A stretch of DNA of 55,787 nt, counting the filler, from Jimgerdemannia flammicorona (lineage: Eukaryota), in NCBI GenBank assembly GCA_003990765.1. It is 3 parts of 3 records of this genome, joined end to end, with 100 filler letters (N's around TTAATTAATTAA, not from the genome) between each part and the next. Parts side by side here need not be neighbours in the genome. Positions count along the whole stretch, not along the records: positions 37,264 to 55,787 come from RBNJ01002190.1; 2 more parts are not named here. One strand, given 5' to 3'. Below, piece after piece: positions 18,636 to 55,787 of the stretch (within the stretch, counting starts at the first letter, position 1; each line of letters opens with the position of its first letter). Position numbers and translations under genes: made by a program. The notes below the pieces were generated by a model. It was given only the letters and a program-made list of their open reading frames with translations. It searched no databases and was not told the origin of the DNA.

Positions 18636-18977
18636 GTAGCCACCGACGCCTTCCCCAGGCCCAGCCAACTATCCAGCCCAGAAGCCATCGCCCCCATCCT
18701 GACCTTGTCAGCAAAGGTCGTCCTCTCCCCTCCTCTCTGCCTCAGACCTCCCCTTCCCCCGCCGCTGGGGCCCCGGCTAGCCATCGAGGCCCCTGGCATC
18801 CCCAAACCATCTCCCCTCCTCCCCACCTGCTGCCAGCCAAAGGCACCACCATCTCCCTGGCCAGTACGCTCACCAGATCGATCGTTGCCATCCATGTTGT
18901 TAGTCGCTGGACACCAAAAACGTTGTAGAAAGTGTTGTCTGAGTCTTGTGTAACCTGAATGTTACCGGAGAAAGATG
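18636..18977 (-). mobile_element. 5' end (5' UTR and ORF1 start) of a LINE of the same family as 20955-27014, inserted into DIRS-1
   Basis: ORF1 MDGNDRSGERTGQG... The 5' terminus CATCTTTC..GTAACATTCAGG falls at the same point as in the 27014 copy. Confidence 0.88.
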
Positions 18978-20900: not shown

Positions 20901-20997
20901 CAGGTCACTGTTTCCAAGACCTCTCAGATAAAATCTTTAGTATACATAGTCCTCTTTTTTCTTTTAAAGTCCCTTGGACTGCCCTTTATTATGACAT

Positions 20998-23900: not shown

Positions 23901-24656
23901 CAAGAAAGAATTTAGCCACCAATGTCCAGGCCCATCCTCACTTCCCCCAAACCTCCCCCCTCCAAGCAGCCCCTAGTGATCAGACCACGGACACCAAACT
24001 ACTTCCAGCATTGACCAGACATCTGCTCCCCAACACTCCACTGTCAAAACCCAGTCAATCCTGGAGCTCAGTCCTGCTGCCCAGTGGGTGTACACCCACC
24101 AATTGGCCCAAAAATGCCTTCTCAAGTCCACCAAAGAACTCAACCTCTCTGTCTCCAACCAGTTACCCAACCCACCACTTTTGCCCTGCATGCCTCTCCC
24201 TCCATCTGTTCTATCTATCTCCTTATCCCATACCATGTTGAAGTCACCCCCCATACAGTCCAGCCCAACCTCTCCCAATAAACCAGCCTCTCTCAACCTT
24301 CGAATCCAATCCACCCTCTCCCCTCTCTCAGCTGGGTAGTAACAAGACCCAACTGTCAATGATCCCTATCCAGGCCTCCTCCACATTCCCCACACCACCT
24401 GAGACCCCCAATGTCCAATGTCCACAATGTCCCCCATCTCTTTCCGAACAAGAATACACACTTTTCCTCTCCATACTGCTGCACCCCCCCATTCCTTAGT
24501 CTAATTCTATAAGTCCACATCTGCCTCATAACGAACATTCTGTAACAAGAAGAGGTCCACATCTAGTCCCTTAAGCCATCCTAATATATACTTCCTCCTA
24601 GCTGCCCCCTATAATCCATTAATGTTCAAAGAGAATATCCTGGTTGTACTATTCAT
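20998..24656 (-). pseudogene. LINE ORF2: APE endonuclease, RT and C-terminal domain
   Basis: SLNINGL, GGDFN, SRIDW, WSDH; APGEDGLP, FLDQEKAYDRV, GVLQGDPL, FADN, YLGI, RGGLGL. Confidence 0.93.
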
Positions 24657-24687
24657 ATTGAAAGAATGTTGCAATAGAGACTCCAGC

Positions 24688-26932
24688 CTAGAATTCCATG
24701 CTTATCTCATCCCCAGCCAAATCCAAGTGCCATTCAGCTTCCAAGTCACCCTCTGCATTAGTCTGAGCATCCAGTGCCTCCAAGATTTCCTGACATTCCA
24801 CTCCATCCACTACCTCCATCTCTGACCGGTAGTCCAAGCAGACTGCACACCACTTCTCCAGTCCCTTCCTCGAGTTCCACAAGAATAGTGCCCTGTTACT
24901 CGCAATCCTCCTAAGTTCCTCCTCTCTCTGATCATTGACTTGATATTCAACTGACTCCAGGAGAACAGCCAGGATCTCATTCCTCATCTTCCTTGGCACC
25001 TCCTCCCCCCATAGGATCTCCTCCCAATGCCTCTCTTCCATCACCCTGAAATCCTCTCCCCCCAGCTCTTCAGCCACTACCCCTTCCAGGGTCTTCTACA
25101 TCTACTTCTCCTCATTCACTACCTCTGCCACACCCTGAGCGATTTGTCCCCCATCCACCTTGGGTCCACCAGCATGCTCCTCTACACTGACTCATCCCAC
25201 TCCTCATCTGGCACATCCAGCAGCTCCTCCTCTCCCTCAGCTCCACCCAGGACACTACACTGGGGGTGCACACCTTCGCTCATATCTGCATCTGCCTCTA
25301 TATTGCCTTCTCTCTTCTCCTCCACTACTAGCTGAGCCCCACTCTGGGCCCTTTCACCCCCCTCAGCCCAGGCACTTTCCTGCAATCCTGCAACCCCCTC
25401 CCCTGAGCTTCCACTGGCCCTACCCCCACTCAACCTCGCCAGCAGCTCCTTCTGGATTTTCCTCCCCTGCATCTTCTCCCAGGCTCCCTTCTCCATCTGA
25501 ACCCTCTTCCCATCCACCTCCCCCACCACCATCCTGGCCTCAAACTCCTTCCATGCTAATCTCCTCCTCACGACCACCCCTTCCAGATCCTCCAGAGCCT
25601 CTAACAGGTCCTCCTCCTCCTCCTGGGTCCCCTTCACCCTCATGACCTTACACTCCACCAGTCCCCACCTCAGCTCACTGGCCAGTCTCTCGACTTCCCC
25701 ATACTCTCCCTCTCAGCCAGCCTCACCCTAACATCAACATCACCAGTCTGAAGCTCCATACCCTCCCAGACCTTGAACCCAACATCCACAATCTCTCCAT
25801 ACTCCCTGATCACCTCTACAACTAACTCCCTGGTCCTCTCCTTTCACACTGTAGGGAGATCCAACGCTGTTAACTCCTTCCATACCAATCTCCTCCTCAT
25901 GACCACCCCTTCCAGATTCTCCAGAGCCTCCAACAGGTCTTCCTCCTCCTTCTGGGTCCCCTTCACCCTCATGACCTTACACTCCACTGGTCCCCACCTC
26001 AGCATCACTGGCCAGTCCCTCGACTTCCCCATACTCTCCCTCTCAGCCAGTCTCACCCTAACATCGACATCACCAGTCTGAAGCTCCGTACCCTCCCAGA
26101 CCTTGAACCCAACATCCACAATCTCTCCATACTCCCTGATCACCTCTACAACTAACTCCCTGGTCCTCTCCTTTGACACTGTAGGGAGATCCAACACTGT
26201 CAACTGCACCACTTGGGGGTCCCAGCACATGCACCTGGCCATAGAGACAACAACCCTGCCAACTGTCACCCCCTTCTCCAAGGCTGCCAGCAAGGTGTCT
26301 TCCTCCTCAAACCCCACCTCAACCCCTTCCTTCCCCTTCAAAAACTTCACCAATGCTGCTCCCTTTGCCTCCTGCACCACCAGCCCCAAAATCTTCCTTG
26401 CCATCACCGCCAAGCTCTGGAAACACATCATAACTGCGAATTCTGACCTTGACTTCTTGAGTAATGGGGCCAACACCATGCCTGTAACCCCATCTGCCAG
26501 GTCTCCGGGCCTCATGCCTACTCCTAGTTCTGTCTTATCAACTACTGTCACATCTGGATTTTTTGCCAGATCCCCAGTCACAGCCCCATCACCAGTCACA
26601 TCTCTAGCCCCTACTCCTGCTCCTCCCCTACCCTCAGTAACTCCCCTGGGTATACCTCCCAGTCCCCCAGCAGCAGCTGTTGATGCCTTCCCTAGGCCCA
26701 GCCAACAACCTAGACCTGAGGCCATCTTCCCCATTCTGACCTTATCAGCAAAGGTCAACCTCTCCCCTCCTCTCTGCCTCAGACTGCCCCTCCCTCCACC
26801 ATCAGGACCTCAGCTAGCCATCAAGGCCCCCAGCATCTCCAAACCATCTCCCCTCCTCTCTACCTGCTGCCAGCCAAAGGCGCCATCTCCCCCCTGGCCA
26901 GTACGCTCACCAGTTTGATCATTGCCATCCAT
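24688..26932 (-). pseudogene. LINE ORF1, with an RRM-like segment duplicated
   Basis: ATG at 26932 (MDGNDQTGERTG). ORFs 25844..26758, 25182..25658 and 24688..25077. RRM-like VQLTVLDLP...IREYGEIVDVGF. Confidence 0.8.
25543..26205. repeat. 330-bp in-frame tandem duplication in LINE ORF1
   Basis: Near-identical blocks offset by exactly 330 bp (e.g. 25773 vs 26103), with AACT microhomology at the junction. Confidence 0.92.
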
Positions 26933-27085
26933 GTCGATAGTCATTGGACACCAAAAACATAGTAAAAAGTGTTGTCTGAGTATTGTGTCACCTGAATGTT
27001 ACTGGTGAAAGATGAGTGTACATAGTCCTCCAGTACAAGGCTGCTATACTGGTCCAGTGCTCTACTCATCTCCAATCTATGAACA

Positions 27086-27202
27086 ACCAACTCTGAAATG
27101 GTCTGAGACTAAGCAAAGCTTAGTCCTAGATAGACGAGGTACTGTAGGTGCCAAAGTCTGTCCCAGACTTTGTGAGCTTGGGGAGGACTATGAAGAGTTG
27201 GT
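27086..27202 (+). repeat. Internal complementary region (ICR) of DIRS-1
   Basis: ACCAACTC...GAGTTGGT block whose second half is complementary to the 3' terminus at 27484-27563. Confidence 0.85.
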
Positions 27203-29568
27203 TTCTCACCCATCTCCACCCTTTCCACTTCCTTTTTGTAGGTTCTTCTCTTCTCTGATGGCCCTGGCCACCAGGGGGTTTTTTCTTTTTTCCTTACTTC
27301 TACTTTGGGCTTACTGCCAATCTTTCTTGGCTAAGGGAACTCTATGGGAGCAGGGACACTTTTATTACTATATTTTATACAAATGTCTCACACATATATC
27401 TTAGACAGATGAATTCACAGTTACATGTAAAACCACTATTTCTAAGACAAATAAAGTATGCCATCACTTTCTAGATGGCAGAAACCAACTCTTCATAGTC
27501 CTCCCCAAGCTCGCAAAGTCTGGAACAGACTTCAGTGCCTACAGCACCTCGTCCATCTGGGAATAAAGGTCCCCTGACTCCCATGGAGTCCCTTAGCAAG
27601 GAAGCTTGGTACATGAGTATGAGAGGTATGTAATATATGTGGGGGGGGGGGGGGGGCGAAGATGTCTGAGAGGGGGAGTGATGGTAAAACAAAAAAACAT
27701 ATATGATGAGATGTATGGAATGTGTCCCAATCAGTGAACTGGAGGGTAGCATATTTGAGAAACAGAGAAGAGTGGGAAACCAACTCTTTATGGTCCTCTA
27801 CAATGCTTGCAAAGTCTGAGACAGACTTAGGCACCTATGGCACCTTGTCTATCTGGGACTAAGCATCACTTGTTCCAGACCATTTCAGGTTGATTCATAG
27901 ATTTGATATGAGTGGAGTACCAGACTGGTGTGGGAGTTTTGTCCTTGAGGACCATGTAGATAAGAGATGTTATCTGGGCAGATTTGGAGAGAATGGGTGC
28001 CCAGTGAGACAAGTGGTAGTGACATTCAAAGGTGGTCTTGGAGCTCCAGTTCCTGCTTTCCAGGACCTCATTGATGGATGTCCCACCTTCTAATGCCTTG
28101 GTGGAGGTTTCAGCATAGATAGAATGTGAGTAGTGGATTGGGTCAATGCCAGTAGCAGCCATGTATTCTGAGAACTAGTTGTAGAGATGGTTGGCTGTCA
28201 GATTGTGGTGTAGAGACTATATACTGATAAAGAGGTGGTCCCCATTCATTGCTGGACATAGGGGTTCCATTTTGTACATCCAGCAGAAAGCCCAGTATAC
28301 TGGACATATGTCCTTATCTTCTAGGAGAGTGAAGATGGAGCAGGAAGTCTTGTAGGAGTTGTCAGGGGTATATTTCTTAGCCATGTCAGTGGTTAGGACT
28401 ATCTCAGCTGACCAGTCATCTTGGCCTCCCTGGAAGTCCATAGTTGTCTGATATTGTACAAAGTCACTAGCTATGTACTATGAGATGTAAAATATAAGAA
28501 GAGTATATATCTTTTTCCTATATAGGACTATCTGTTTAATGGAGTTGAAGGGACCTAATGATTGGAGCCATTGGATGAGAGTAGAGATATCTCAACATAG
28601 GGCTTTGTTCTTGAGAGAAAGGAGATATAGATTTTCTGCTCTCTAGATAAGGCAGGAGATTGTGAGGAGTTTGGAGAAACAGATGCTATTGATGGATAGT
28701 GTCAAGCAGCCAATAGTAGTGTGGACACTATAGAGTTGGCAAGTGCTCATGTTCTTATAGAAAAGGTGGTCTAGGCAGTTGGTCTGTTGTTCTATAGTTG
28801 CTCTGGTGAGATTGATATATCATTAACTATACCAATAGACACAGTACTGATATACAGATTCATAGTTCTTATGGGAAGAGGTTTGCATGCTGACCCAAAT
28901 GAGACTTCTAGCTAGTGCTGTCAGATTTTCAGTATCTGGGGAGTACTACTGATGAGCTACACTAGAGTATTCCAGTGATGTGTCCATGTCACTATTGCTG
29001 TTGCATGATGTGGGAGAAGGATTAGAGGAGCTATTATCATTTCCAAGAGCTCAGGCCACCAGCTCTGTCATTGCCAGAAGGGTGTAATAAGAATGAGAAT
29101 GTTATAATAGTTCTCCTTCACCTTGTGCAGTATATAGTTGATGAGGATCCAGAGGGGATTTGTGTATGCCCTGGTGAGTGACTATTAGTATTGGAAGGCA
29201 TCTGTTTCCAGGACTGCTGGGTCGGGCCACTGGCAGTAAAAAAGGGGGTCTGCATCATTATTTAAGATATGAAAAGATTTATGTAGATTGGGTTCCACTG
29301 ACAGTAGAGTTATTGGAAGATAGATGATTGTAGTTTCCAATTATTAGGATCAGAGTATATATAGCTCAGAAAGTCTGTCCACATGTTCTTGGTCTCTGGC
29401 AGATATTTCACAAAGAGATAGATATATCATATCAGACAGATCTGATGGATCTGGGCAGTGATTCCAATAAGGTAGAGGAGAGATCTCTCTTATTTATTGA
29501 TGAAGGCCTATATTGTCATATCATCTATCTGAATAAGCACTGTGCAGCCTTCTCAGTAGTTGCTGTTG

Positions 29569-37263: not shown

Positions 37264-37298
<35 letters not shown>
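37264..37298 (+). other. PolyA, probably a LINE tail inserted into the 5' LTR of copy A2; contig start
   Basis: A 35-nt A-run directly abuts LTR U5 sequence. Confidence 0.6.
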
Positions 37299-37300
<2 letters not shown>

Positions 37301-37439
37301 AACTCAGAAATCTTAGAACATTTTGTTGCTTTTTGATAAAGTAACTGGGGGCTCAAGCCAAACTATATCAACCCCCAACCTTGTAATTTACCTCCATTGA
37401 GCCAGGTATGTTACATTTGGGGGCTCAACTAGGAATATT

Positions 37440-39000
37440 TCAAATTAACATGACTTTTCAGCTCACAAGAACCCACAGTCAAACTGGATATATTTGATAC
37501 AATACCAACCTCTGCCACTACAGGAGAACCAGTTATCACCAGTATCTGGACAGGAAAAGAAGTAATCACATCAAGACTTGCCAACTACCCAGCATCAGAA
37601 GGATCCCAACCAAAAGGCAGTACAGCCTGAAATCCTCAACCAGATCAACCAGACAATATAGGTAGCCCTGCTAGAGATTTCAAAGAACTTGCACAAGAAC
37701 TAGAAGATCTTATCACATGAACCTGAGACCTTACAGCCAGATGTCCCATACCAGCCCCACCAATCTCACCAATAGAACCTTTACCACAACCCCTTGCAGA
37801 GTTGGAAGTAGCTTCTACAAGAATACCTAGACTTATTCCACTTTATCCAAGGTCCAGAACACCATCCTTAAGATACCCAAGCACTCTCATCTCCAGTGAT
37901 AGCTCAGAAAGTGAATCAGAATCAGAATCTGAACCCAAACCAGAATCAGAAGAAAGTGATGAAGAAATGGCCACCTCACTGCCAACCTTTGCAGGATACC
38001 TGGAGGAAGACTCCAGAGAGTTTCTTGATGGAATTGAAGGAATCGCAGCCTTGAGAAATCTCTCAGATAAAAGAAAAATCGACATCTACAAGGCTCAGCT
38101 CAGAGAACCAGCCAGAGGACTTTTCCATTGAACAGCAAACAACCCAGATTCAGAACTGGCAAGACAGATACAAGCAGCAATGTCCTATGAGCTACAATAT
38201 GAGGCCATGGTCCACTGACTCATTGAAAAGTATGCAGGAAATGAAACCTGCCACAAGGCCCAGGAATCCATCATGGGGATGATGATGAATCTTGGAGAAT
38301 CACCCAGAGCCTTCTTCACAAGAATCCAGAAGAGAATGCATACTGTCAGGTTCAATGCCACCAACAAGGACATCATTGGTCCAATGACCTTCATGAAAGG
38401 AATTCCCCCAAACATTGCCCAGCATATTCACATCCTTGGCATCAGAAGGTCCAAAGAGCAAGTAGATGCAGCCCAAGGATTCTTTGATATCAGACAAGGA
38501 ACTACCTGGAGTGATCATGACAGAAAAGAAGATAAAGAAGATATCCTGATCAAAGCCCTACAAGGACTCCTTCAAGGACAAGAAAGATCTGAAGAAAGAA
38601 GGCCAGCCAAGGAAGGAAAGAAGGACAGAAGTAAAATCCAAGACCTCAGCTCCAAGTTGGACTAATTGGTCAGACAGATTGAAAACCTCACTATATGCAA
38701 AAACCAGAGCTACCAAGACAATAGAGGATACTTACCACAGAGGAGCCAAGGTTATCCACCCAGAGATAACAGGAGTTATCAGCAGGAAGAGAGAAGATAT
38801 CCTGTCCAAGACAGAGCTCAGGTCTAATGCTTCCACTGTGGATAATTCAGACACTATGTAACCGAATGTGACAACAAAAGAAGTAACCAAGGAGACTCAG
38901 AATCATCAAACTGAAGGAGTGACACTCAGTACAAGAAGACTGAAGCCCATCCTGTTGAAGATTTTGAGGAAACAAGTGACAGTGAAGATTACAGTGACCT
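37440..39000 (+). pseudogene. Gag (copy A2)
   Basis: ORFs 37802..38131 and 38273..38665 are homologous to A1 gag. Knuckle remnant near 38828-38870. Confidence 0.85.
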
Positions 39001-39469
39001 AGATCTGTACTCTACCAAGATTACTACCTGAAAAACAGTCTACCCAGTAGAAAAGAGAAAGATACCTATAGGAAAGCCATCCAGGAACATCAGTAGAAGA
39101 ATCATCCAAGAAGATGAGGAACATAAAGAGGAGCAGGTAGAAATACCTCCCCGAACCCCCTCACCTTTTGTCTCTAAGACAAATGAGCTACCACTAGAAA
39201 ATGAAGAGATGGAACAAGAAGATTAGGAACCTGCTGCCCCAAAGCCCAAAAAGAAGTGTACCCTGAAGACCATGCCCAGAGACATCTACAATGAAGCTTG
39301 GCAGAAGATTCAAGAAGCCAAGATGGAAGTCCCTCTCCTACTTCCTACAACTGACACCAGCCAGGGTTCAAAACAAATTATTAAGAACAACTAGGTATAG
39401 CACTGGCCAGGTCCCAATCCCACAGTAAGAACTAGCTCCCATATAGCTAAAAGACAAGTCAGCACCTAT

Positions 39470-42400
39470 CTACATGGAGATATCAGAGGACAAAAGGCAA
39501 AGATCCTCATAGATACAGGAGCAGCTGTCTGTATCATTGCCAAATAGTTCTTGGACACCCTCCAATGGCCCATTGATGGACCATCCAACCTCAGCATCAT
39601 AGTAGCAGATGGAGCCCGAACCCAACCCCTTGGAGAAGTACAAAACATCACCATCTTCCTTGGACACATTCAGTTCTCTATTCCCAAAGCTGTTGTCACA
39701 GAAGCTGTCACCTATGACATAATTCTTGGCACCAACTGGTTGAAGGAAATGAATGCAGTCATTGATATTGGCCAACAAGTACTCAAGTTTGACTACTGAG
39801 GCAAGAAGTACAGAGTCAAGGTGACTAGCTATGAGCAATTAAAGAAGAAGAAGAAGGTCACTATTCAGGAAGAATATGCCAGTAGTGAGGAGTCTACTAC
39901 AGAAGAGAAAGCAGAAACTGAAGATGGAAATGATCCCAGACTCAATCCCCAAATTACCTGATAGATGACAGAACAGAGGACAATGTTTGGGCCAAGAACA
40001 CCATCCCTATCACTATTGGAGCTATTGTGGGAGAAGCCAAAGGATGCCCTATCTGTCTCAAGAGATACAAGTGTCCCAAGCATTTCTCCAAAATCATGGG
40101 AACAAGGAAATCATCTGGCACAGCCTGCCCAGAATGCAGAAAGAAGAAGAAGAAATGCAGACATATTCCAGAAATACCTGCAACTGAAGCTGCAGAAGTA
40201 TAAGCAATTTGGGGTCAAGAATTATCTGAGGAAGAAGAAACCTCTGACCAAGAAGTTCCTGAACAAGAAGTACCTAAAGAAGAAGAGGTCCCTGAACTCA
40301 TCTCCTGGGATGATTCTCGCTGGATACTACCTGAAGACAATGACCCTTGGAATACAGAAGAAGGACTCAGTATAATTATCATTATCCCCAAGAAAGAAAC
40401 TCACTAAGAAAAAGCCTTTCAGCTAGGAAGATGTCCACACCAAATGGTCTTCTACTCTCCCCAAGACTACTGCTATCAGTGCCATTTATTAGACTAACAG
40501 AAGAGACAGAGACCCCAGAGACCAGAGCCCCTGAACACACTTATACAGTCAACTACTTTCCAAGAAGTTACAACCAAGTTGTAAAGCCAATTTAGAGGAC
40601 AAGGCTTCTTCACCCAGACAGAAATATATCCCTTATCAACTCTTCTACCCACCTATGACCAAGATGGGTACTGATTCCCAAGACAACAAGAGATCAATAA
40701 CCAGGAACATCATTTCCAAGCAATGGGATATTGCAACCATAGAAGACATCCTGACTGCTGAGACTGCAGACATCAGAAGATTCATCTCAGTCATGATGTT
40801 GCAATCCATACCTTGAAGAGAGGAGATAACTGAAGCCAGATACAAAAAAGCCAGATCAAAAAGTCAGAAAGAAGGATCCTCAAGATCTACAATCTAGGAG
40901 AAGCCATCCTTGCTCTCATCAGACATGTAACCATCAAGGATGGGCAGAAGATGCCACCAACTTGAAATAAGCCCTTGACCCTACAGAAAAAAGGGGAATC
41001 AACTATCTCCAAGACCCCTCTACTGGAGCCAGATGGCCACACCTCAACCTTAGAGCCTGGAGGCTCTCTGCTAGTAGAGCTTCAGCCTTAGAAAAGCCCA
41101 AACTCAGCAAGAATATTGCCCAGTATGCCCTACTGCACCCCAAGGCTAAACCCCCAACCAAAGCCCACCCAGAGGATGTAGGATATGATCTTCACAATCT
41201 GGAGGATGAATCTATCAAGTCTGGAAAAACCTTCATGATCAGAACTGGATTAGCCATGCAGCCACCCCAATAATCTTATATCGAATTGACCTCAAGGTCT
41301 GGACTTACCAGACAAGGAAGAATGGTAGAAGGAGGAACCATTGACCCAGGATATATGGGCAAAATCAAGGTTATCTTACAAAACAGCAGTGCAGAATGGC
41401 ACTGAATCATTAGAGGACAGAAGATTGCCCAAGCAGTCTTCATGAAGATCAAGACCCCACAGTTACAAGAAGTCTCTGAACTAACTGAAGGAACAAGACA
41501 AGCCAAGAGATTTGGAAGCTCAGACAGGAAGGAAGTACATCTCCTTCAAGTCAACCACCTCAAGAGGAGTGTTCCCCAGCAAGTGTACCAGCAACCAGTT
41601 AGACTGCACAAGAATCTTATTCTGGAGCCTGGAAAACAAACAACCTTCGAAATCTTTACACCACCCGACCCCAGAAACCTTTTCTTTGAACCCAAGGAAG
41701 ATATCCCCCACCTGGACATAGAGAGACATACATTCTCTAACAAGATGAACCCAGTACACTCCCAAGCAACCAACCAAAGTTGGGAAACTGTCATCTTGCT
41801 AAACCTATTGGGAAACAGCAAAAGGTCCCAGAAGAAAGGAAAGGCCCTTCTGCGACCTAGGAGACAGTGAAGCCTTCCACCAACATTGGAGAAGAATTGA
41901 CACCTCAACAACAACAACTAGTAGAACTTCTCAACAAATATCAAGATATCTTCACTACTGATTATGGCAACCTGCCATACAATCTATCATATCACCACAG
42001 CATAAATATAGAAAATACAACACCCATCCAGCAGAAATCCTATAGAATACCCCATCACTTGAAATCATTTGAAAAGGAGCACATCTAAGAACTCTTAGAC
42101 AATGGAGTCATTCAACCCTCTACCAGCCCTTGGGCTAGCCCCATACTTATTGTACCAAAGAAAGGAGGATGGAGACTCTGTGTAGATTACAGGAAACTCA
42201 ATTCAGTCACTGAAAAGGATGCCTATTCTTTGCCCAGAATCGATGACCTTTTGGATCAGTTACAAGATGCCAGATACTTCAGCAGTATGGACCTCTTCAC
42301 AGGATTCCATGAAATCCCCGTGGACCCAAAAGACATTCAAAATACAGCCTTCCTTGCTCTAGGAAAACTGTTTGAATATCTCCAAATGCTCTTTGGACTT

Positions 42401-44338
42401 TGCAATACACCCATCTTTCAGAGGATGATGAATTCAGTTTATACTCCTTTGATCCACCACTGTCTGATTGTATATATGGATGATTCCAACATCTATTCTG
42501 CAAATTTTGAAGAACATCTGCACTACCTAGAGGAATTCTTCAAGCTCACCCACAAGAACCACTTGAGGCTGAATGCAAAGAAATGTTACTTTGGGAAACA
42601 GAAACTCGAATTCCTTCGATTCATAGTTTTGAAAGAAGGAATCTATACAGATCCAAAGAAAACTGAGAAGATCAACAATTGGTCAGTACCCAAGACCCTG
42701 AAGGGAACACTATCATTCCTGATGCTAGTATCCTACTATAGAAGGTTTATCAAGGATTTTGTCCAAATTGCTGGCCCAATCCAGATCCTTCTCAAGAAAG
42801 AAGTACCATTCAAATGGATAGAATCACAAGAAAAAGCCTTCAAAGAACTCAAGAACTGCATGACTACAGCACCAATCCTTGTGCGCCCCAATCTACAGAA
42901 GCCATTCATTTTGTATAGAGATACTTCTAAAGATGGCCTTGGAGCAGTTCTAGCCCAGGAAGGACCTGACCAACAACACCATATGATAGCTTATGCAAGC
43001 AGAGCTACCAATCAGCAGCAGATGAACTATGGTAGCACTAAACTGGAATGTCTTGCAGTCATATAGGTGGTCACTCTGTTCAAGCATTACCTCATCAGAA
43101 AAAGGTTCACCCTGATCACAGACCATGCAGCCCTCAAATGATTATTCAACTATAAGAAACCCACCAGAATCCTAGCCCTCTGGATCCTTATCCTTCAGGA
43201 TTACAAAATCACCATCATCCACAAAGCAGGGAAAGCCCACAACAATGTTGATGTACTTTCCTACCAACCTCAATAAACCAGAAGAAGGGTCCCAAGGAAC
43301 TACAACCTAAAGAAAGCTCCTCAGACCATTAAGGCACAAGAAGATCTCATCTGTAAAGAATATTAGAAAGCTCACCAAGGACAGACAAGTACAGAAGACA
43401 AGATTCGAAAACTGTATCAACACTGGCCCCACCTCAGAACTCAAGTTCAAGACATTATTCAGAAATGTGACACTTGCCAGAAGTACCAAGGAAAGAAGAA
43501 CTATCAAGCCTCTTTGCAACCAATTCCCCCACTCACTCACATCTTTCAGAGATGGGAAGTAGATGTAATTGGACCTCTACTGGTTACACTAAGAAGAAAC
43601 AAATACATCTTTATATTTGTGAAACATCTGACCAAATGGCCTGAGGCTTTTCCAATGGAAATTGCAGATGTCTTAACCATTGTAGGCCTTCTCCATGGAT
43701 ATATACTCAGATATGGACCCCCAGAAGAACTCATCTCTGACTGAGGCACAGAATTCATCAATAACATAATTATAAGTTATGCTCAAATTCACAAGATCCA
43801 CCTCAAGCAGACTATATCATACCACCCTCAGACCAATGGTATGACAGAAAGAATGAATCAGACCATCAAGAAAGAACTTATCTGAGTCAATCCTACCAAT
43901 TAGGACCTCTGCTTACCTGAGATCCTATGGGAAATTTGGAACACCCCTGCAGTCTCCACTAGACAAAAGCCATTCAAGATGATGTTTGCCAAGAAGACCA
44001 GAACTGCTGACCATGAGAACCTCGGAGACCTCCTCAAGAAGGCAGAACCATTGTATAATCAAGCCCAAGCACAGATTATCAAAGCTCAAGAAAGACAAAA
44101 GAAGTATTATAACCAGAAACAGAAGGATTAGAAGATGAAGATTGGAGATCAAGTACTAGTCTGGAGAAGTGTGATTGAAACAAATTTTGCTACCAAATTG
44201 GAACCCAAATGGGAAGGACCTTATCTTGTACACAACATTAGAGAAACCAGCATTTATTTAAGAAGTATAGATGGATAAACCCTGAGAACACCAGTACACA
44301 TCAATCATCTCAAACTATACTTTCCCTCTATGCCATGA
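39470..44338 (+). pseudogene. Pol of copy A2: protease, insert, dUTPase, RT, RNase H, integrase
   Basis: DTG ~39510; dUTPase 41130-41520; IVYMDD in ORF 42230..43066; TDH; CDTCQ, WEVDVIGP, LISD*GTEF, YHPQTNGMTERMNQTIK and KWEGPY; stop TGA at 44336-44338. Confidence 0.95.
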
Positions 44339-44850
44339 GTCAAAGGATTGATCAGTACCTCCAGACATTGGTCCTCAGCTCCTTCCAAGCCCTACCAGTC
44401 CCTCTACCCCAATTTGGCCAAGCTAATGGAAACCCCCTTTAAAAGATCCAAGTTCATCAAGAAAATCTCACCCTGACCAGGTGCCTACTACAAATCCACC
44501 AACTATAGGCCTATTATGCAATTGGTGAACAATTGCAGAACCTTCCAGTCCCAGAGCAGACCTATATCAGGAACACCACCAGTCTGACCAGAAGAGACAC
44601 TACTGCTGTAGACAGACTATATACTATTTATAAACAAAATGTCACAGCTCTGATACAGGCACAGTTCTCCCTGAATGATATTCAAGAAATGAACCCTACT
44701 ACCTATTTGAGCCTCATCAATGCTGTTGAAGTCCTATTCCCTGAAGAAGAAGAAGAGCCCATAGAATGGAGTGACCCTAATATAGACAATGAGGATGATG
44801 GAACAGGTATAGATACAGAAGCAGCCTATGCTTATTGGGATGATGACTGA
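44335..44850 (+). pseudogene. Extra ORF (ORF3) in the env position, ~171 codons, function unknown
   Basis: ATG at 44335 overlaps the pol TGA and is in frame with ORF 44533..44850. Two internal stops (TAA, TAG). Acidic C-terminus. Confidence 0.7.
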
Positions 44851-44880
44851 AGAATAGTCTGGAACAGACTATCCTTCAGT

Positions 44881-44889
44881 GGGGGCTGA
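44881..44889 (+). promoter_or_regulatory. Polypurine-tract-like sequence
   Basis: GGGGGCTGA immediately before the LTR TGTAAC. Confidence 0.65.
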
Positions 44890-46782
44890 TGTAACAAACC
44901 AAGATATATCACCTGAATTATACCTTAGTCAGATGATGTGAACAATTAGTCAAGATGATATGAATATACAGCATAGTAACTAGTAACCATTACTACAGAA
45001 ACTATATAATTAGCCAGATATACCATAAAGGGTCTGTTTACCTGTACAAACTCTGTACACCATATAAACTCTGTACACTGTACAGGTCCTGTACACCATA
45101 CAGACTCTGTACACCTGTCATAAGTAGCAAACCTATAGTTAGCCACATAGCAACCAGATAGCAACCAAGTTATATAAATTACTCCAGAGACAAGAGTGAA
45201 TAAACCTCAGTCTGAAAGTTGAATACAAACCAAAGCAAAAGTCAATTATCTGATACACTTAGGAGAAATACCTGCCAAAAGCCACTTGATCCAGAAAGGA
45301 TTGCAACACTTAGGAGATATGCTTGCCAACGAGCCACTGCCAAGAAGTTGTGAGCTTGGTTCTTTTCTCTTCCACTCTGGTCTACTTTCCAATATAAAGA
45401 ACAAGTCCATTTTTGGTTTGCTTGCCAGATAAGCCTGAAGTTTGCTGCCCAAGTTCAAGGAAGAACTTCACTGCCTTTTCAGTTATCTGCTATTTCCCAG
45501 TTGAAAGCCACCGATTCAGAAGAATCCACATCATCCGAGTTATTTCCAGAAGCCCACCGATTCCAGAGAATCTGCATCATCCACCCTTTTCAAGTTATCC
45601 ATATTCCCAGAAGAGCCCAATTCAGGAAGAATCCGCACCATCCAAGTAGTATTCCCAGTTGAAGCTGATTCAGAAGAATCTGTGCCACCCGAGTTATTTC
45701 CCAGAGAGCCATCAATTTAGGAAGAATCTGCGACATCCGAGTTACCTGAGTTCTTGAATTATCCACCTCCTACGCCATCTGAAGTTATCTATACCAATCC
45801 AAGTTATCTGTTATTCCCAGTGAGTCCGAGTTATTGAGTTATCTGCCAGAAATCGCATACTTTTAGAAATCGTCATGCTACATGGAGATCATCACGCAGA
45901 GATCACCGCTACCCAAGAAGGAAACCACCAAATTGCCAGATCATCACACAGAAGAAACCCGCACTATATAAGAGATCATCATGCCAGAAATCACATACTT
46001 TTGGCAAAGTGTCCCACGCATGAGGAGGCTAACGTGAGATGAATAGTGTTCTATATAAAATGAATCTAATGTGGGACATGGGTTTGGCTCAAAGGAAGCA
46101 TACACTTCTGAAGGCCCGCCAATCGCATTCATATGTGAAGAGGCCAGGCACACATTTATTGTTCCAAAGGGGGATGGATGGGAGGGGTGCATGAAATTGA
46201 TTGATACGAATTACTAACAACGATTGCTAGAGTATGTTGAGGGAAATGTGTGGCCGCTGCCTAACTCTTGGGCATGCGGTTGGAGCTCGGGCTAGCTAAG
46301 GTAGGGTGCAGAAAGCGATTGAAACTGACTAAGCTAAGATGGTGGATTGCATGATTACGTTGCATGAATGTTTAAGCACATGGTAGGGTGCAGGAAGCGA
46401 TTGAAACTGACTAATCTAAGATGGTAGTTGCATTGCGCGATGAATGTTAGATGCACAAGTGTTAAGCGCAATGACCACTTTGCTGCATTTTGAACTACGT
46501 TCACAACTATATGGACTGCCTTACTATACAAAATTGTGGCATTCCCAGTTGACCCAAGAAGGAAACCCATTCACATACAAATTGCCACTATACCCAGAGA
46601 ACTGCTCCAATAAGGAAATCACTCACAGATATCCAGCATTTGACTATTATATCACTAAACACTAAGGACCACAGGAATCTTAGAACATTTTGTTGCTTTT
46701 TGATAAAGTAACTGGGGGCTCAAGCCAAACTATATCAACCCCCAACCTTGAAATTTGCCTCCATTGAGCCAGGCATGTTACA
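44890..46782 (+). repeat. 3' LTR of copy A2 (1893 bp, including a ~0.5 kb foreign insert)
   Basis: TGTAAC...GTTACA. Its U5 end is nearly identical to 37299-37415. Confidence 0.92.
46003..46522. other. ~520-bp insertion in the A2 3' LTR, absent from the A1 and A3 LTRs
   Basis: LTR homology stops near 46000 and resumes near 46525. Contains an ~80-bp direct repeat (46300-46380, 46382-46457). Confidence 0.7.
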
Positions 46783-48003: not shown

Positions 48004-49330
48004 TGTGACAATCCATAAAAATGCAGTACCAAAAACTTAGCCAGATGACACAAATATTAGTAACTGGCAACCATTGCTGTGGAAAATGTATAAATAACCC
48101 AGATAGCTAAAGAAGGGAAAAACCCTGACAGTGGCAGTCACTCTGACAGTGGCTGTCATTCTGACAGTAGCTGTCACCCTGACAGTGAATGTCACCCCAT
48201 AAATAGCATTCTATAGTTAGCCAGATAGCAACCAGATAGTAATCACAATGTATAAAATACCCCAGAGACAAGAGTGAATAAACCTCAGTCCGAAATACAA
48301 ATACCAAAGAAGCCTCTAAAGATTGAGCATTGGTCCCCTTTCCACTTCAGTCCTCTTTCCAATACAAAGCTTGAAGATTTTGCCACCAAATTCAAGTGAA
48401 GAACTTCGCTGCCTTTTGAAGAGAATCCCACTGCTTAAGGAATAAGCCGTGCTATTGGTTTGCTTGCCAGATAAGCCTGAAGTTTGCCACCAAGTTCAAG
48501 GAAGAACTTCACCGCCTTTTGAGTTATTTGCTGCATTCCCAGAGAGCCTTGCCACAAGCCAGTCCTTGACGCAACTTCGCAGTGATCCGTTCGCGCAAAC
48601 GAAGCCAGTCTAGACGTAACTTGCAAAGAACCCGAGTTATTTCCCAGTTGAAGCCGATTCAGGAAGAATCCACGCCACCCAAGTATTATTCCTAGAGAGC
48701 CCAAGTTATCTGCGACATCTGAGTTATTCATTATTCCCAGTGAGCCCAAGAAGAATCCACTGCCAGTACAATTCCCAGTAAGAAGAATCTGCCACCAGTA
48801 CAATTCCCAGTAAGAAGAACCTGCGCCATCATCTATTCCCAAACCGCGTTTTTGGAAAATCAACGCCAAATCAAGTTATCCACTAAGATTACCAGATTGC
48901 ATCACATAAGGAATCCACTCACACTACACAGGATTGTCACGCAGAGATCATCACACTACACACGAAATTCTACCAATTCCCAGTTGACCCAAGAAGAAAA
49001 CTGCCAAATTGCTAGATCGTCACACATAAGGAACCTGCCACACTACACAAGAGATCATCATGCAGAAATCAGAGATTGTCACCCAAGAAGGCGAACTGCT
49101 CAATTGACAGATTGTCACCCATGCACAAATTGCTGCTACACCCAGAGAACCCATCCCTATAAGGAAATTGCTTGCAGATATCCAGTATTGACTATTATAC
49201 CACAAAACATGAAGGAACTCAGGAATTATAGAACATTTTGTTGCTTTTTGACAAAGTAACTGGGGGCTCAAGCAAAACTACATCAACCCCCAACCTTGTA
49301 ATTTTCCTCTATTGTGTCAGGCACTTTACA
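48004..49330 (+). repeat. 5' LTR of copy A3 (1327 bp)
   Basis: TGTGAC...TTACA, homologous to the A1 and A2 LTRs and followed by TT-TGGGGGCTCAACTGGGAAT. Confidence 0.85.
48123..48197. repeat. 18-bp palindromic tandem repeat (4 units) in U3
   Basis: CTGACAGTGGCTGTCA(C/T)n units, with TGACAG/CTGTCA arms. Confidence 0.88.
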
Positions 49331-49349
49331 TTTGGGGGCTCAACTGGGA

Positions 49350-52300
49350 ATGATTTCAAAATCAACATAACTTTTCAGCTCACAAGAACCCACAGTCAAA
49401 CTGGATACATTTGACACAACACCAACCTCTGCCACTACAGGAGAACTAGTCATCACCAGTATTTGGATAGGAAAAGAAGTAATCACATCAAGACTTGCCA
49501 ACTACTCAGCATCAGAAGGATCCCAACCAGAACCAGAAGGCAGTGCAGCCTAAAATCCTCAACCAGATCAACCAGATCAACCAGACAATATAGACAGTCC
49601 TGCTAGAGATTTTGAAGAACTAGTACAAGAACTAGAAGATTTTATTACATGAATCTGAGACCTTACAGCCAGATGCCCCATACCAGTCCTACCAATTTCA
49701 CTAATAGAACCTTTACCACAACTCCTTGCAGAGTTGGAAGTAGCTTCTATAAGAATACCTAGACTTATTCCACTTCGTCCAAGGTCCAGAACACCATTCT
49801 CAAGATACCCAAGCACCCCTATCTCCAGTGACAGCTCAGAAAGTAAATTAGAATCTGAATCTGAACCTGAACCAGAATCAGAAGAAAGTGATGAAGAAAT
49901 GGCCACCTCACTGCAAACCTTTGCAGGATACCCAGAGGAAGACCCCAGAGAATTCCTTGATAGAATTGAAGAAATCACAGCCTTGAGAAATCTCTCAGAT
50001 AAAAGAAAAATCACCATCTACAAGACTCAGCTCAGAGAACCAGCAAGAGGAATTTTCCATTGAACAGCAAACAACCCAGATTCAGAACTGGTAAGACAGA
50101 TACAAGCAGCAATGTCTTATGAGCTAGAATATGAGGCCATGGTCCACTGGCTTATTGAAAAGTATGCAGGAAATGAAACCTGCCACAAGGCTCAGGAATC
50201 CATCATAGGAATGAAGATGAATCTTAGAGAATTATCCAGAGCCTTCTTTACAAGAATCCAGAAGAGAATGCATGCTGCCAGGTTCAATGCCACCAACCAG
50301 GACATCATTGGTCCAATGACCTTCATGAATGGAATTCCCCCAAACATTGCCCAGCATGTTTGTACCCTAGGCATCAGAAGGTCCAAAGAGTAAGTAGATA
50401 CAGTCCAAGAATTCTTTGATGTCAGACAAGAAACTATCTGGAGTGATCATGATAGGAAAGAAGAGAAAGAAGACATCCTGGTCAAATCTCTACAAGGACT
50501 TCTTCAAGAACAAGAAAGATCCAAGGAAAGAAGGCCAGCTAAGGAAGAAAAGAAGGACAGAAGTGAAGTCTGAGACCTTAGCTCTAAGTTGGACTAATTG
50601 TTTGGACAGATTGAAAAACTCACTATATGTGAAAATTGGAGCTACCAAAACAACAAAGGATATCCACCACAGAGGAGCCAAGGCTATCCACCAAGAGATA
50701 ACAGGAATTACCAGCAAGAAGAAAGAAGGTACTCTGTCTGAGACAGAACCCAAGTCCAATGCTTCCACTGTGGACAATTTGGACACTATGCCACTAAATG
50801 TGATAATATAAAAAGTGACCAAAGGGACACAGAACCACCAAACCAAAGGAATGATACTCAGTACAAGAAGACTGAAGTCCATCTTGTGGATGATTTCAAG
50901 GAAGCAAGCAACAGTGAAGACTATAGTGACCTAGACTTGTACCCTACCAAGGTTACCTCCTGAAAAACAGTTTACCCAGCAGAGAAAAGGAAGAGACCTG
51001 TGGGAAGGCCATCCAGGAACATCAGCAGAAGAATCATCCAAGAAGAAGGCGAAGAACATGAGGAAGAACAAGTAGAAACACCTCTCCAAACCCCCTCACC
51101 TTTTGTCTCTGAGACAAATGAGTTGCCACCAGAAGATGAAGAAATAGAACAAGAAGAACAGGAACCTGTTGTCCCAAAGCCCAAGAAAAAGTATACCCCA
51201 AAGACTATGCCTAGAGACATCTATAATGAAGTCTGGCAGAAGATCTAAGAGGCCAAGATGGAAGTCTCCCTCCTGTAGTTCCTGCAACTGACACCAGTTG
51301 GAGTCCAAAACAAATTACTGAGAACCACCAGGTCTAGCACTAGCTGAGTCCCAATCCCACAGAAAGAACCAGTTCCCATCCCTGTCCAGGCAGCTGAAAG
51401 ACATGTCAGTATCTATCTATATAGAGATATTGGAGGACAAAAGGCGAAGATCTTCATAGACATAGGAGCAGCTTTCTGTGTCATTACCAAACAGTTCCTG
51501 GACACCCTCCAATGGCCCATTGATGGACCATTCAACCTCAGCATCATAGTAGCAGATGGATCCTGAACCCAACCCCTTAGAGAAGTACGAAATATCACCA
51601 ACACATTCAGTTCTCCATCCCCAAAGCTGTTGTCACTGAAGCTGTCACCTATAATATAATTCTTGGCACTAACTGGATGAAGGGAATGAATGCAGTTGTT
51701 GATATTGATCAACAAGTACTCAAGTTTGATTACTGAGGCAAGAAGTATAGAGTTAAGGTGACCAGCTATGAGCAATTGAAGAAGAAGAAGAAGATCACTA
51801 TTCAGAAAGAATATGCCAGTAGTGAATAGTCTACTACAGAGGTGGAAGAAGACTCTGAAGAAGGAAATTATCCCAGACTCAACCCCCAAATTAACCTGGT
51901 GGATGATAGACCAGAGGACAATGTATGGGCCAAGAACTCTGTCCCCATCACCATCAGAGCCATTGCAAGAGAAATCAAAGAATACCCTACCTGCCTCAAG
52001 AGATACAAATGTCCTGAGCATTCCTTCAAGATTATAGGAATAAGGAAATCACCTGGCACAGCCTGCTCAGAGTGCAGAAGGAAGAAGAAGAAATACAGAC
52101 ATGTTCCAGAAACACCTGCAACCAAAGCTGCAGAAGTACAAGCAATTTGGGGTCAAGAATCATCCAAGGGAGAAGAAACTTCTGACCAAGAAGTTCCTGA
52201 AGAAGAAGTACCTGAAAAAGAAGAGGTCCCTGAACTCATTCCCTGGGATGACCCTTACTGGACACCACCTGAAGACAATGACCCTTGGAATACAGAAGAA

Positions 52301-55300
52301 GGATCCAGTACAATTACCATTATTCCCAAGAAAGAAACTCACCAAGAAAACCCTTTTTGGCTAGGAAGATGTCCACACCAAATGGTCTTCCACTCTCCCT
52401 GAGACTACTGCTATCAGTGCCATTTACTAGACCAATAGAAGAGACAGAGACCCCAGAGACCAGAACCCCCAAACACACTTATAAAGTCAACTAGCTTTCA
52501 AGAAGTCACCACTAAGTTGCAAAGCTGATTCAGGGAGCAAGGCTTCTTCACCCAGACAGAAATATATCTCTTGTCTAATCTTCCATCCACCTATGACCAA
52601 GATGAGTACTGATTCCCAAGACAGCAAGAGATCAATAACTGAGAACATCATTTCTGAGCAATGGAATATTGCAACCATAGAAGACACCCTGACTGCCGAG
52701 ACTGCAGACATTCTCAGTCATGATGTTGCAATCCATACTTTGAAGAAAGGAGATAACTGAAGCCAGATCCAAAAAAGCCAGATCAAAAAGCCAGGAAAAA
52801 GGATCCTCAAGATCTATGATTTAGGAGAAGACATCCTAGCTCTCATTAGACATACAACCCACCAAGGATGGGCAGAAGATGCCACCAACTTTATGGAAGC
52901 CCTTGATCCTACAGGAAGAAGAGGAATCAACTATCTCTGAGACCCCTCTACTGGAGCCAGATGGCCACACCTCAACCTTAGAGCTTAGAGGCTCCCCACT
53001 AGTGGAGCTTCAGCCTTAGGAAAGCCTGAACTCTGCAAGGATATTGCCCAGTATGCCCTGCTGCACCCCAAGGCCAAACCCCTGACCAAAGTCCACCCAG
53101 AGGATGTAGGATATGATCTTCACAGCCTGGAGGATGAATCTATCCAGCCTGGAAAAACCTTCATGATCAGAACCAGATTAGCCATACAACCACCCCAAGG
53201 AGCTTACATCCAACTGACCTCAAGGTCTGGACTTATCAGACAAGGAATAACCATGGAAGGAGGAACCATTGACCCAGGATATATGGGCGAAATCAAGGTT
53301 ATCATATACAACAGCAGTACAGAATGGCACCAAATCATTAGAGGACAGAAGATTGCCCAAGCAGTCTTCATGAAAGTCAAGACCCCACAGTTACAAGAAG
53401 TCTCTGAACTAACTGAAGAAACAAGACAAGCCAAGGGATTTGGAAGTTCAGACAGGAAGAAAGTATACCTTCTTCAAGTCAACCACCTCAAGAGGAATGT
53501 TTCCCAGCAAGTGTACCAGCAACCAGTCAGACTGTACAAGAATCTTATCCTGGAGCTTGGAAAACAAACAACCTTCGAAATCTTTGCACCACTTGACCCC
53601 AGAAACCTTTTCTTTGAACCCAAGGAAGATATTCCCCATCTGGATATAGAGGGACACACATTCCCCAACAAGATGAACCCAGTACACTCCCAAGCAACCA
53701 ACCAAAGTTGGGAAACCATCATCTTGCCAAAAGGAACCATCAAAGGACACCTGGTACCTTTTCTCAACTGAACTCATAGAGAAGTTTATGAATTAAACCT
53801 ATCAGAAAACAGCAAAAGGTCCCAGAAGAAAGGAAAGGCCCTTCTGCGACCCAGGAGACAGTGAAGCCTTCCACCAACATTGGAGAAAAATTGACACCTC
53901 AACAACAACAACAACTAGTAGAACTTCTCAAAATATATCAAGATATCTTCACTACTGATTATGGCAACCTACCATACAATCCATCATATCACTATAGCAT
54001 AAATATAGGAAATGCAACACCCATCTGACAGAAACCCTATAGAATACCCCATTACTTGAAAATATTTGAAAAGGAGCACATCCAAGAACTCTTAGACAAT
54101 GGAGTCATCTGACCCTCTACCAGCCCCTGGGCTAGCCCTATACTTATTATACTGAAGAAAGGAGGATGCAGACTCTGTGTGGATTACAGGAAACTCAATT
54201 CAGTCACTGAAAAGGATACCTATCCTTTGCCCAGAATCAATGACCTTTTGGATCAGTTACAAGATATCAGATACTTCAGCAGTATAGACCTCTTCGCAGG
54301 TTTCCATGAAATCCCCATAGACCCAAAAGACATTCAAAAGACAGCCTTCCTTGCTCTAGGAAAACTGTTTGAATATCTCCAAATGCCCTTTGGACTTTGC
54401 AATGCACCCCCACCTTTCAGAGGATGATGAATTCAGTCTATAGTCCCCTGATCCACCACTGCCTGATTGTATACATGGATGATTCCAACATCTATTCAGC
54501 AAATTTTGAACACCTGCACCACCAAGAGAAATTCTTCAAGCTCACCCATAATAACCACTTGAGGCTGAATGCAAAGAAATACTACTTTGGGAAACAGAAA
54601 CTCGAATTCCTTAGATTTATAGTTTTGAAAGAAGGAACCCATGCAGATCCAAAGAAAACTGAGAAGATCAACAATTGGCCAGTATCCAAGACCCCAAAGG
54701 AAACACTATCATTCTTGATACTAGTATCCTACTACAGAAGGTTTATCAAGGATTTTGCCCAAATTGCTGCCCCAATCTATTTCCTTCTCAAGAAAGGAGT
54801 ATCATTCAAATGGACAGAATCACAAAAAAAAGCCTTCAAAGAACTCAAGAACTGCATGACTACAGTACCAATCCTAGTGCACCCCAATCTACAGAAGCCA
54901 TTCATCTTGTATACAGATGCTTCTAAAGATGGCCTCAGAGCAGTCCTAGCTCAAGAAGGACCTGACCAACAACACCATATGATAGCTTATATAAGCAGAG
55001 CTACTAATCAACAGCAGATGAACTATGGTAGCACCAAACTGGGATGTCTTGCAGTCATATGGGCAGTCACCCTGTTCAAGCATTACCTCATCAGAAAAAG
55101 GTTCACTCTGATCACAGACCATACAGCCCTCAAATGGTTATTCAATCACAAAGATCCCAATGGAATCCTAACCTGCTGGATCCTTATCCTTCAGGATTAC
55201 AAAATCACCATTATCCACAAAGCAGAGAAAGCCCACAACAATGTTGATATACTTTCCTGCCAACCCTAATAAACCAGAAGAAGGGTGTCCCAAGGAACTA

Positions 55301-55772
55301 CACCCTAAAGGAAGCTCCTCAGACCATCAAGATACAAGAAGATCTCATCTGTAAAGAACATCAGAAAGTCCACCAAGGACAAACAAGTACAGAAGACAAG
55401 ATTTGAAAACAATACCAATATTGGCCCTACCTCAGAATACAAGTCTGAGACATTATTCAAAAATGTGACACCTGCCAGAAGTACCAAGGAAAGGAGAACT
55501 ATCAAGCCCCTCTGCAACCAATTCCCCCACCCACTCACATCTTTCATTGATGGGGAGTAGATGTAATTGGACCTCTACCAGTTATACTAAGAAGAAATAA
55601 ATACATCCTTATATTTGTGGAACATCTGACCAAGTGGCCTGAGGCTTTCCCAATGGAAATCACAGATGTCTTAACTATTGTAGGCCTTCTTCATGGACTC
55701 ACACTCAGATATGGATCCCCAGAAGAACTCATCTCTGACCAAGGCACAGAATTCATCAATAATATAATCATA
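49350..55772 (+). pseudogene. Gag-pol of copy A3 (many stops and frameshifts)
   Basis: CFHCGQFGHYATKC near 50760-50800, the dUTPase motifs, YMDD, YTDASKDG and ITDH. Confidence 0.92.
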
Positions 55773-55787
55773 TTTTTTTTTTTTTTT
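55773..55787 (-). other. PolyT, probably a LINE tail interrupting the integrase; contig end
   Basis: An abrupt T-run follows ...GTEFINNII. Confidence 0.55.

Follow-up and report, generated by a model that had tools for sequence, protein, structure and literature searches.

Introduction

Stop-start coupling, in which an AUGA or UAAUG joins a second open reading frame (ORF) to a long first one, has been described for caliciviruses, influenza B virus, the hypovirus CHV1, the victorivirus HvV190S and the non-long terminal repeat (non-LTR) element SART1; the reviews concerned (PMC10275272, PMC5972666, PMC5902531), in the parts available to us, deal with RNA viruses and non-LTR elements only and do not mention such coupling in LTR elements. 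Here, we describe a stretch of 55,787 nucleotides (nt) from Jimgerdemannia flammicorona (assembly GCA_003990765.1; three parts of three records, joined by 100 filler letters each, hereafter the window), in which copy A of a Ty3/Gypsy element, about 9.5 kb in length and lying on the + strand, harbours a third ORF, ORF3, behind gag and pol. Based on sequence comparisons, ORF3 is very probably a genuine conserved third gene of a non-chromoviral Ty3/Gypsy family that also bears a dUTPase-like region, and its start codon overlaps the pol stop codon as ATGA.

With the RNA-virus systems, i.e. the fungal victorivirus HvV190S (CP/RdRp), the hypovirus CHV1 (ORF A/B), caliciviruses and influenza B virus, ORF3 shares an out-of-frame overlap of stop and start nucleotides after a long ORF and, according to the accessible parts of the reviews (PMC10275272, PMC5972666, PMC5902531), a downstream ORF near the 3′ end of the RNA. 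In contrast, these viruses are described there as having a mapped stimulator, i.e. either a TURBS (a ribosome-binding site upstream of termination) of 40-87 nt with complementarity to 18S or a pseudoknot, whereas none was detected in copy A by folding or by a search for UGGGA. Unlike in the RNA-virus systems, the upstream ORF of copy A exceeds 2,000 codons, and reinitiation would here be a putative mechanism. SART1 likewise is a retrotransposon in which a stop-start overlap, i.e. the UAAUG between ORF1 and ORF2, serves to translate a further ORF of the same RNA (Kojima et al. 2005, as reported in the parts of the reviews available to us). However, SART1 belongs to the non-LTR elements, encodes the polymerase in its downstream ORF and is stated to need a hairpin 34 nt downstream (PMC5902531, in part), while none is predicted in copy A. 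A literature search on reinitiation, AUGA and ORF3 in LTR retrotransposons turned up no comparable case.

Extra ORFs in Gypsy elements are already known as a kind; what is new here is the protein family and its conserved stop-start overlap with pol. To our knowledge, the extra ORFs of fungal-type Gypsy elements appear in figures but have received little study, and a role is known for almost none of them. Lineage-specific Ty3/Gypsy genes likewise described, in the portions of the sources available to us, and like ORF3 lacking homologues beyond a narrow group, are the env-like ORF3 of gypsy and Athila, an ‘add. ORF’ of fungal Gypsy elements (PMC2864245), brtn, the extra gene of the Botrytis element BcGypsy1 (bioRxiv 10.1101/2021.04.13.439636), and CERV (PMC10309623). 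The ORF3 studied here lies downstream of pol, as env does, but with 171 amino acids (aa) and no transmembrane or signal stretch it is unlike the env-like ORF3 and falls outside the errantivirus/Athila definition. CERV, as far as the accessible text goes (PMC10309623), has 517 aa, overlaps gag and is spliced, whereas ORF3 has 171 aa and follows pol; this comparison covers the env-like ORF3 and CERV. The place that ORF3 takes, directly behind the GPY/F module of the integrase, belongs in chromoviruses to the chromodomain, a known tether of integration to chromatin (PMC2864245, in the part available). ORF3 differs from it in being a separate ORF in another frame, with a predicted helical protein, an acidic tail and no chromodomain match, and a role in targeting would be a guess.

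A third gene between pol and the polypurine tract

The features of the ORF3 region are:
44335..44338, + strand: ATGA, ORF3 start over the pol stop; ATG 44335-44337 shares TG with the pol TGA, placing ORF3 in the -1 frame relative to pol
44335..44850, + strand: ORF3, 171 codons plus TGA (44848-44850), the decayed version of a conserved gene encoding about 170 aa
44440..44442, + strand: TAA stop at codon 36, private to copy A; Gln in all aligned relatives
44506..44508, + strand: TAG stop at codon 58, where every aligned relative has Gln or Glu
44740..44847, + strand: acidic tail, codons 136-171, with two conserved Trp residues, i.e. in E-W-S-D and in Y-W-D-D-D at the C terminus

The pol C terminus reads ...PVHINHLKLYFPSMP, followed by TGA at 44336-44338. 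From the overlapping ATG, ORF3 fills all of the interval from pol to the polypurine tract: 28 nt separate its stop from a G-run (GTGGGGGC, 44879-44886) and 39 nt from the 3′ LTR (TGTAACA, 44890). An earlier reading of this DNA from the sequence alone (the sequence-only reading) had described exactly this pol end with its overlapping ATG, a frame of about 171 codons interrupted by only two single-transition stops and a frame end about 30 nt before the polypurine tract, all of which agrees with what was found. Over the ORF3 span, the ORF3 frame holds two stops, compared to 11 and 13 in the other forward frames and 7, 13 and 12 on the reverse strand. Dinucleotide-preserving shuffles (n=5000) gave a mean of 11.6 stops (sd 3.1), with two or fewer stops in a fraction of 0.0004; the open frame thus exceeds chance. 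Since relatives have Gln or Glu at both stop positions, and position 44440 is C in five of the five covering contigs of run X2 (labelled as a soil metagenome), both stops are private transitions of copy A.

A word-indexed search of 5.8 billion proteins with the window ORF3 returned eight matches (E 1.6e-77 to 1.1e-18) and the profile of the family 16 protein matches. HMMER, run exhaustively on 1.84 billion cluster representatives, gave only seven, among which P0016 (5298 aa) was discarded as spurious. Four relatives are unbroken from Met to a W[DN]DD end, i.e. P0005 (171 aa), P0006 (172 aa), P0018 (169 aa) and P0008 (183 aa, its extra length being an upstream extension chosen by the gene caller), and share 54-74% identity with the window ORF3 (P0018: 56% to P0005). 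The remaining ones measure 53-157 aa, mostly on contigs of 0.6-2.3 kb. A distant relative, P0017, has 168 aa, 24% identity, a similar length and an acidic end (hhalign probability 94.7%). No longer or pol-fused form was present among the 1.84 billion representatives. At the DNA level, scans of viral contigs and genome contigs gave no further ORF3, and the metagenome scan gave one locus, L001. In these searches, ORF3 is a new protein family of narrow distribution with no known relative.

L001 is a metagenome contig of 4.1 kb that covers 83 ORF3 codons and whose pol, 82% identical to that of the window at the nucleotide level over 2.5 kb, is far more intact than the window's. Over 81 ORF3 codons, window and L001 differ at codon positions 1, 2 and 3 in 30, 12 and 53 cases (chi-square 26.7, p 1.6e-6), corresponding to a pN of 0.253, a pS of 0.849 and a ratio of 0.30, an estimate that rests on this one pair. 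A frame-blind nucleotide alignment of the two places an internal ORF3 gap of 15 nt. Therefore, once the subfamilies had split, purifying selection still acted on ORF3 in the frame it has now. For the same pair, the integrase shows a pN of 0.095 and a pS of 0.48 and the reverse transcriptase-RNase H (RT-RNaseH) region a pN of 0.086 and a pS of 0.553, so that ORF3 changes about 2.7 times faster than the integrase at the protein level.

While the family is conserved, the window's own copy at 44335-44850 is an inactivated one. Stops number 2 in 171 codons in ORF3, 10 in 825 in the RT-RNaseH-integrase frame and 21 in 1120 in the gag-protease frame; the decay of ORF3 is no greater than that of pol, and both ORF3 and the element as a whole are dead. 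Among the contigs of run X2, 2603 aligned to the family, 258 of them at least 99% alike, with a lower coverage over ORF3. Differences between copy A and these contigs comprise 172 C>T, 279 T>C, 205 A>G and 142 G>A changes, with 5-23 for each transversion, and at the five ORF3 differences (44356-44440) among the 40 of 1331 listed the window has T or A where the contigs have C or G, a pattern that fits decay of copy A by C-to-T changes.

The stop-start overlap

At the junction, the pol frame reads TCT ATG CCA TGA in the window and AAG CCA TAA in L001, and the ORF3 frame ATG AGT and ATA ATT, respectively; the homologous site of L001 is thus ATAA. Compared to the window, L001 lacks one codon in the pol tail and three at the ORF3 start, and still the pol stop falls within the first two ORF3 codons; it was thus kept there through two separate in-frame indels. 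The ATG of L001 was lost via a G-to-A change that preserved a pol stop. Considering the window, L001 and 12 proteins, Met stands at the ORF3 start in 12 of the 14 sequences. Residue 2 is S, N, T or I, for which an A-initial codon is possible in all 14 (AGT in the window and ATT in L001 by their DNA). Its first base can therefore be A throughout while the second varies, the pattern that a pol TGA or TAA at this site requires. We regard this pattern, seen largely in protein sequences, as supportive of a kept overlap, not as decisive. The check proposed with the sequence-only reading, i.e. whether other copies keep the frame and the overlap, did not refute it, as both are kept and indels are in frame in the relatives and L001.

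Upstream of the ATG, the window has 31 and L001 51 further codons without a stop in the ORF3 frame, reaching into the conserved KWEGPY codons, within which an ATG occurs; in the window the opening ends at a TAG where L001 has CAG. An upstream start at the KWEGPY ATG was rejected: the last 38 pol codons have a pS of 0.516 between window and L001, compared to 0.48 over the whole integrase, i.e. it is not lowered, and ORF3-specific conservation starts at the Met. Because synonymous divergence of pol is undiminished there, ORF3 probably starts at ATG 44335 and not upstream.

The predicted ORF3 protein

The ORF3 protein divides into a core of about 135 aa with near-neutral charge and a tail of about 35 aa, which in four full-length relatives contains 12-18 Asp and Glu residues and no Lys or Arg. 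AlphaFold2, run with an alignment of 11 sequences, predicts an all-helical core and a disordered tail from about residue 135 (predicted local distance difference test score, pLDDT, 64.6; predicted template modelling score, pTM, 0.54), with helices at residues 3-18, 34-69, 74-81, 86-100, 103-107, 113-117 and 121-134 and pLDDT below 50 from residue 140. An Atlas model of ORF3 has a pTM of 0.68, and its best structural neighbour a TM score of 0.37.

Neither sequence nor predicted structure links ORF3 to a described protein. Pfam matches of 11 ORF3 members were all under the cut-offs, with nothing below E 0.019, a sequence-profile search of the PDB gave a best E of 0.48, and Foldseek returned no match at E<=0.001 against the PDB and viral models. 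A wide search with a Foldseek-independent aligner reached a best Z of 5.2 for generic helical hairpins, residues past about 76 being barely covered. A likeness to HIV-1 Rev (Z 4.7) and to other helical hairpins was discarded, as these values lie below the stated noise level for helical models. Comparison by hhalign found no likeness to the element's own gag (probability 0.2%). In six members, no transmembrane- or signal-like stretch was seen, the maximal Kyte-Doolittle mean over 19 residues being 0.91-1.36. The view taken from the sequence alone, i.e. a small soluble protein with an acidic tail, not env-like and without signal peptide or transmembrane stretch, in an element without chromodomain (no PF00385 match), is supported. 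The anti-silencing or targeting factor suggested in the same reading would be a conjecture, as the protein resembles nothing of known function. The tail may resemble Arp2/3-type acidic-Trp motifs, a SUMO-interaction-like motif (VEILF followed by acidic residues) or acidic activation domains.

Possible routes of ORF3 expression

The arrangement at 44335-44338, where pol stop and ORF3 start overlap out of frame, is the one seen in termination-reinitiation, and the statement of the sequence-only reading that AUGA overlaps serve this purpose in several viruses is in line with the reviews, in the parts available (PMC10275272, PMC5972666, PMC5902531). It is tempting to speculate that ribosomes finishing pol at the UGA would resume translation of the full-length RNA at the overlapping AUG, yielding a little ORF3 protein per Pol molecule. 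As the conserved ATGA suggests it, we put forward expression of ORF3 by termination-reinitiation at the AUGA tentatively, as possible but short of probable. As for its function, the helical core would bind a component of the element and the acidic Trp tail would recruit a host protein, such that an adaptor would be encoded where chromoviruses carry the integrase chromodomain. That the protein is such a core-tail adaptor is guessed from position and composition and is rather unlikely. The full combination, i.e. AUGA reinitiation after gag-pol giving an accessory protein whose acidic Trp tail would recruit a host factor and replace the chromodomain in targeting or in evading host control, is unlikely, although, if true, it would be the first such stop-start coupling in an LTR element. 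Taken as our best explanation, the statement of a real third gene, reinitiation at the AUGA and a guessed adaptor comes close to an even prospect and falls a little short of it.

Several observations weigh against this explanation. The start codon is replaced by Ile (ATA) in two of the 14 sequences (L001 and P0011), and P0017 begins with Met-Ala and thus cannot have ATGA. Junction DNA comes from two sequences only, the ATGA of the 12 proteins being deduced from their residues, and these proteins are mutually related. P0012, on a contig of 11.8 kb, loses the frame after about residue 62, so that broken copies exist too. RNA structure at the junction does not exceed that of shuffled sequences, with a z of 0.08 for the window and -0.60 for L001; no TURBS-type UGGGA lies 40-87 nt upstream, the sole one standing 125 nt upstream inside the conserved KWEGPY codons; and the sole Rfam match, a snoRNA on the opposite strand, lay under the threshold. 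Ribosomes would have to translate more than 2,000 codons and pass two changes of frame around the dUTPase-like region, so that few of them would reach the pol stop. Finally, the adaptor idea rests on composition and position.

Considering these points, reinitiation is favoured only narrowly over expression of a real accessory gene from its own spliced or internally promoted subgenomic mRNA, with the ATGA reflecting the tight packing of two independently constrained signals. This would be a serious possibility, if a doubtful one, and all the evidence for a real gene fits it equally well. The env and accessory genes of retroviruses and the env of Drosophila gypsy are expressed from spliced or subgenomic mRNA, and we know of no downstream gene of an LTR element or retrovirus with known expression that does not use a spliced or internally started mRNA. 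CERV of Cer1, too, comes from a spliced mRNA of five exons, according to the accessible part of its description (PMC10309623). Besides the missing stimulatory structure or motif at the junction and the very little protein to be expected from a route through more than 2,000 codons with frame changes, the ORF3 ATG has a purine at -3 (GCCATGA). On the other hand, the sole joint near ORF3, from 44555 to 44732 with 176 nt skipped in one contig, lies inside ORF3 and is not a multiple of three; it was rejected as splicing and taken as a deletion in a relative. Several ATGs also lie within 130 nt upstream, so that a subgenomic start site would have to be very close, and the exact overlap survives two separate in-frame junction indels, which packing alone does not require.

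A transframe integrase-ORF3 fusion made by -1 ribosomal frameshifting near the end of pol would agree with the -1 position of ORF3, with its upstream opening of 31 and 51 codons and with a canonical heptamer, A AAT TTT, at 44182 in the window. However, this heptamer is absent from L001 (A AAC TTT), no other was found in the window or L001, and a shift at 44182 would replace the conserved KWEGPY...LK.Y end of the integrase, making such a fusion very improbable; neither do the unconstrained synonymous sites of pol in the overlap, the Met kept in 12 of 14 sequences and the lack of a downstream structure (window z 0.08, L001 -0.60) support it. That ORF3 is a relic, i.e. a cut-off integrase C-terminal domain or a chance open frame never translated alone, is the least probable of all, since the dead window copy and the relatives that are broken or lack the ATG (L001, P0011, P0012), which speak for it, are countered by selection in the present frame after the subfamily split (30/12/53, pN/pS 0.30, in-frame gaps), four unbroken ORFs at 54-74% identity (P0018: 56% to P0005) plus the 24% relative of similar length, the shuffle probability of 0.0004 and the lack of any fused form in 1.84 billion representatives.

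Copy A and its setting

The window is a nest of decayed transposable elements, and the ORFs across it are pieces of Gypsy, LINE-like and other elements. Copy A, the host of ORF3, consists of:
37298..37415, + strand: remnant (3′ end) of the 5′ LTR, ending in TGTTACA, with a poly-A run and an N run upstream; placed by LTR-end alignment
37416..37429, + strand: primer-binding site (PBS)-like sequence TTTGGGGGCTCAAC, which abuts the LTR end and is conserved there in all three copies (A, B and C)
37454..40816, + strand: gag-protease frame (position modulo 3 = 2) with 21 stops, from translation; Pfam aspartyl protease matches, best gag-asp_proteas 4.5e-10
40830..41870, + strand: dUTPase-like region in a different frame (modulo 3 = 0) with 3 stops, from translation
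41861..44338, + strand: RT-RNaseH-integrase frame (modulo 3 = 2) with 10 internal stops, ending SMP-TGA
44879..44889, + strand: G-run (GTGGGGGC TGA) just 5′ of the 3′ LTR, a polypurine-tract-like primer site by its position
44890..46782, + strand: 3′ LTR of 1893 bp, TGTAACA...TGTTACA, from its alignment to the copy B and copy C 5′ LTRs

The 5′ LTR is mostly missing behind the N run, and 37297-37415 matches 46664-46782 at 95%. The LTRs have inverted TG...CA ends, the PBS-like sequence is conserved behind the LTR and a G-run precedes the 3′ LTR, as in LTR elements; TTTGGGGGCTCAAC is a candidate PBS, a role taken from its position only. The PBS-like sequence TTTGGGGGCTCAAC (37416-37429) and the G-run before the 3′ LTR, GTGGGGGCTGA (44879-44889), have the core GGGGGCT in common. 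Two further copies of the element, i.e. copy B at 49212-55787 (+ strand) and copy C at 5383-162 (- strand), are truncated by the window ends before ORF3, and no comparison of ORF3 is therefore possible inside the window.

In read-through translations of copy A, Pfam recognised RVT_1 (1.8e-25), RT_RNaseH (7.4e-31), Integrase_H2C2 (2.1e-07) and rve (8.8e-06), and the domain order protease-RT-RNaseH-integrase, with the integrase after the RT, places the element in Ty3/Gypsy (Metaviridae). Membership of the chromoviruses was rejected, as the integrase carries no C-terminal chromodomain (no PF00385 match in the pol translation by Pfam). The pol protein ends six residues past the LKLY motif, and nine integrase relatives (37-44% identity; P0023 near-identical at 99%) stop at the same place, after an ...H.N.LK.Y motif. 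The integrase relatives that bear a name share no more than 34% identity and belong to plants, animals, algae and, in one case, a fungus.

The gag frame opens right after another ATGA (ATG 37450-52, TGA 37451-53), with ATGA also in copy C and ATAA in copy B, and stays open for about 170 codons before the first in-frame Met (37450-37961); in copy C the gag start region (4533-5225, - strand) encodes 230 aa without a stop. The dUTPase-like label rests on motifs found by eye and on the literature on fungal Gypsy elements, in the part available (PMC2864245). Lying between protease and RT, this segment is in a frame that differs from both (40814-40833 and 41840-41875 in the window, 1290-1400 in L001). 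Its frame ends at a stop, TGA in the window copies and TAA in L001, with a -1 continuation into the RT, an arrangement common to all three copies and to L001 despite its divergence. The dUTPase/RT junction thus looks like a conserved recoding junction; by-eye inspection revealed no canonical slippery heptamer there. An unrelated second Gypsy element at 14036-18337 (+ strand) also has a dUTPase-like segment (15881-16546) and ends after RNase H at an assembly gap (N run at about 18540-18640), before any ORF3 position. Elsewhere in the window, at 20000-28000, GC content is high (0.49-0.53) and GC skew very strongly negative (-0.2 to -0.56); this stretch includes a reverse transcriptase-like ORF at 22227-23384 (- strand), LINE-like in appearance.

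Implications for Ty3/Gypsy elements

ORF3 is an extra ORF of a Gypsy element shown to be under selection, belonging to a small family and tied to pol by a conserved stop-start overlap. Even if neither the proposed route of expression nor the proposed function holds, the finding has value for annotation, because annotators of transposable elements would call the region non-coding and gene callers would call it an orphan host gene. If the overlap drives translation, a mechanism of RNA viruses and non-LTR elements would extend to LTR retrotransposons, and the junction would be a compact natural reinitiation signal after a very long ORF. If the ORF3 protein is an adaptor to a host factor, it would offer, as the product of a gene of its own, a substitute for the chromodomain in steering or protecting integration.

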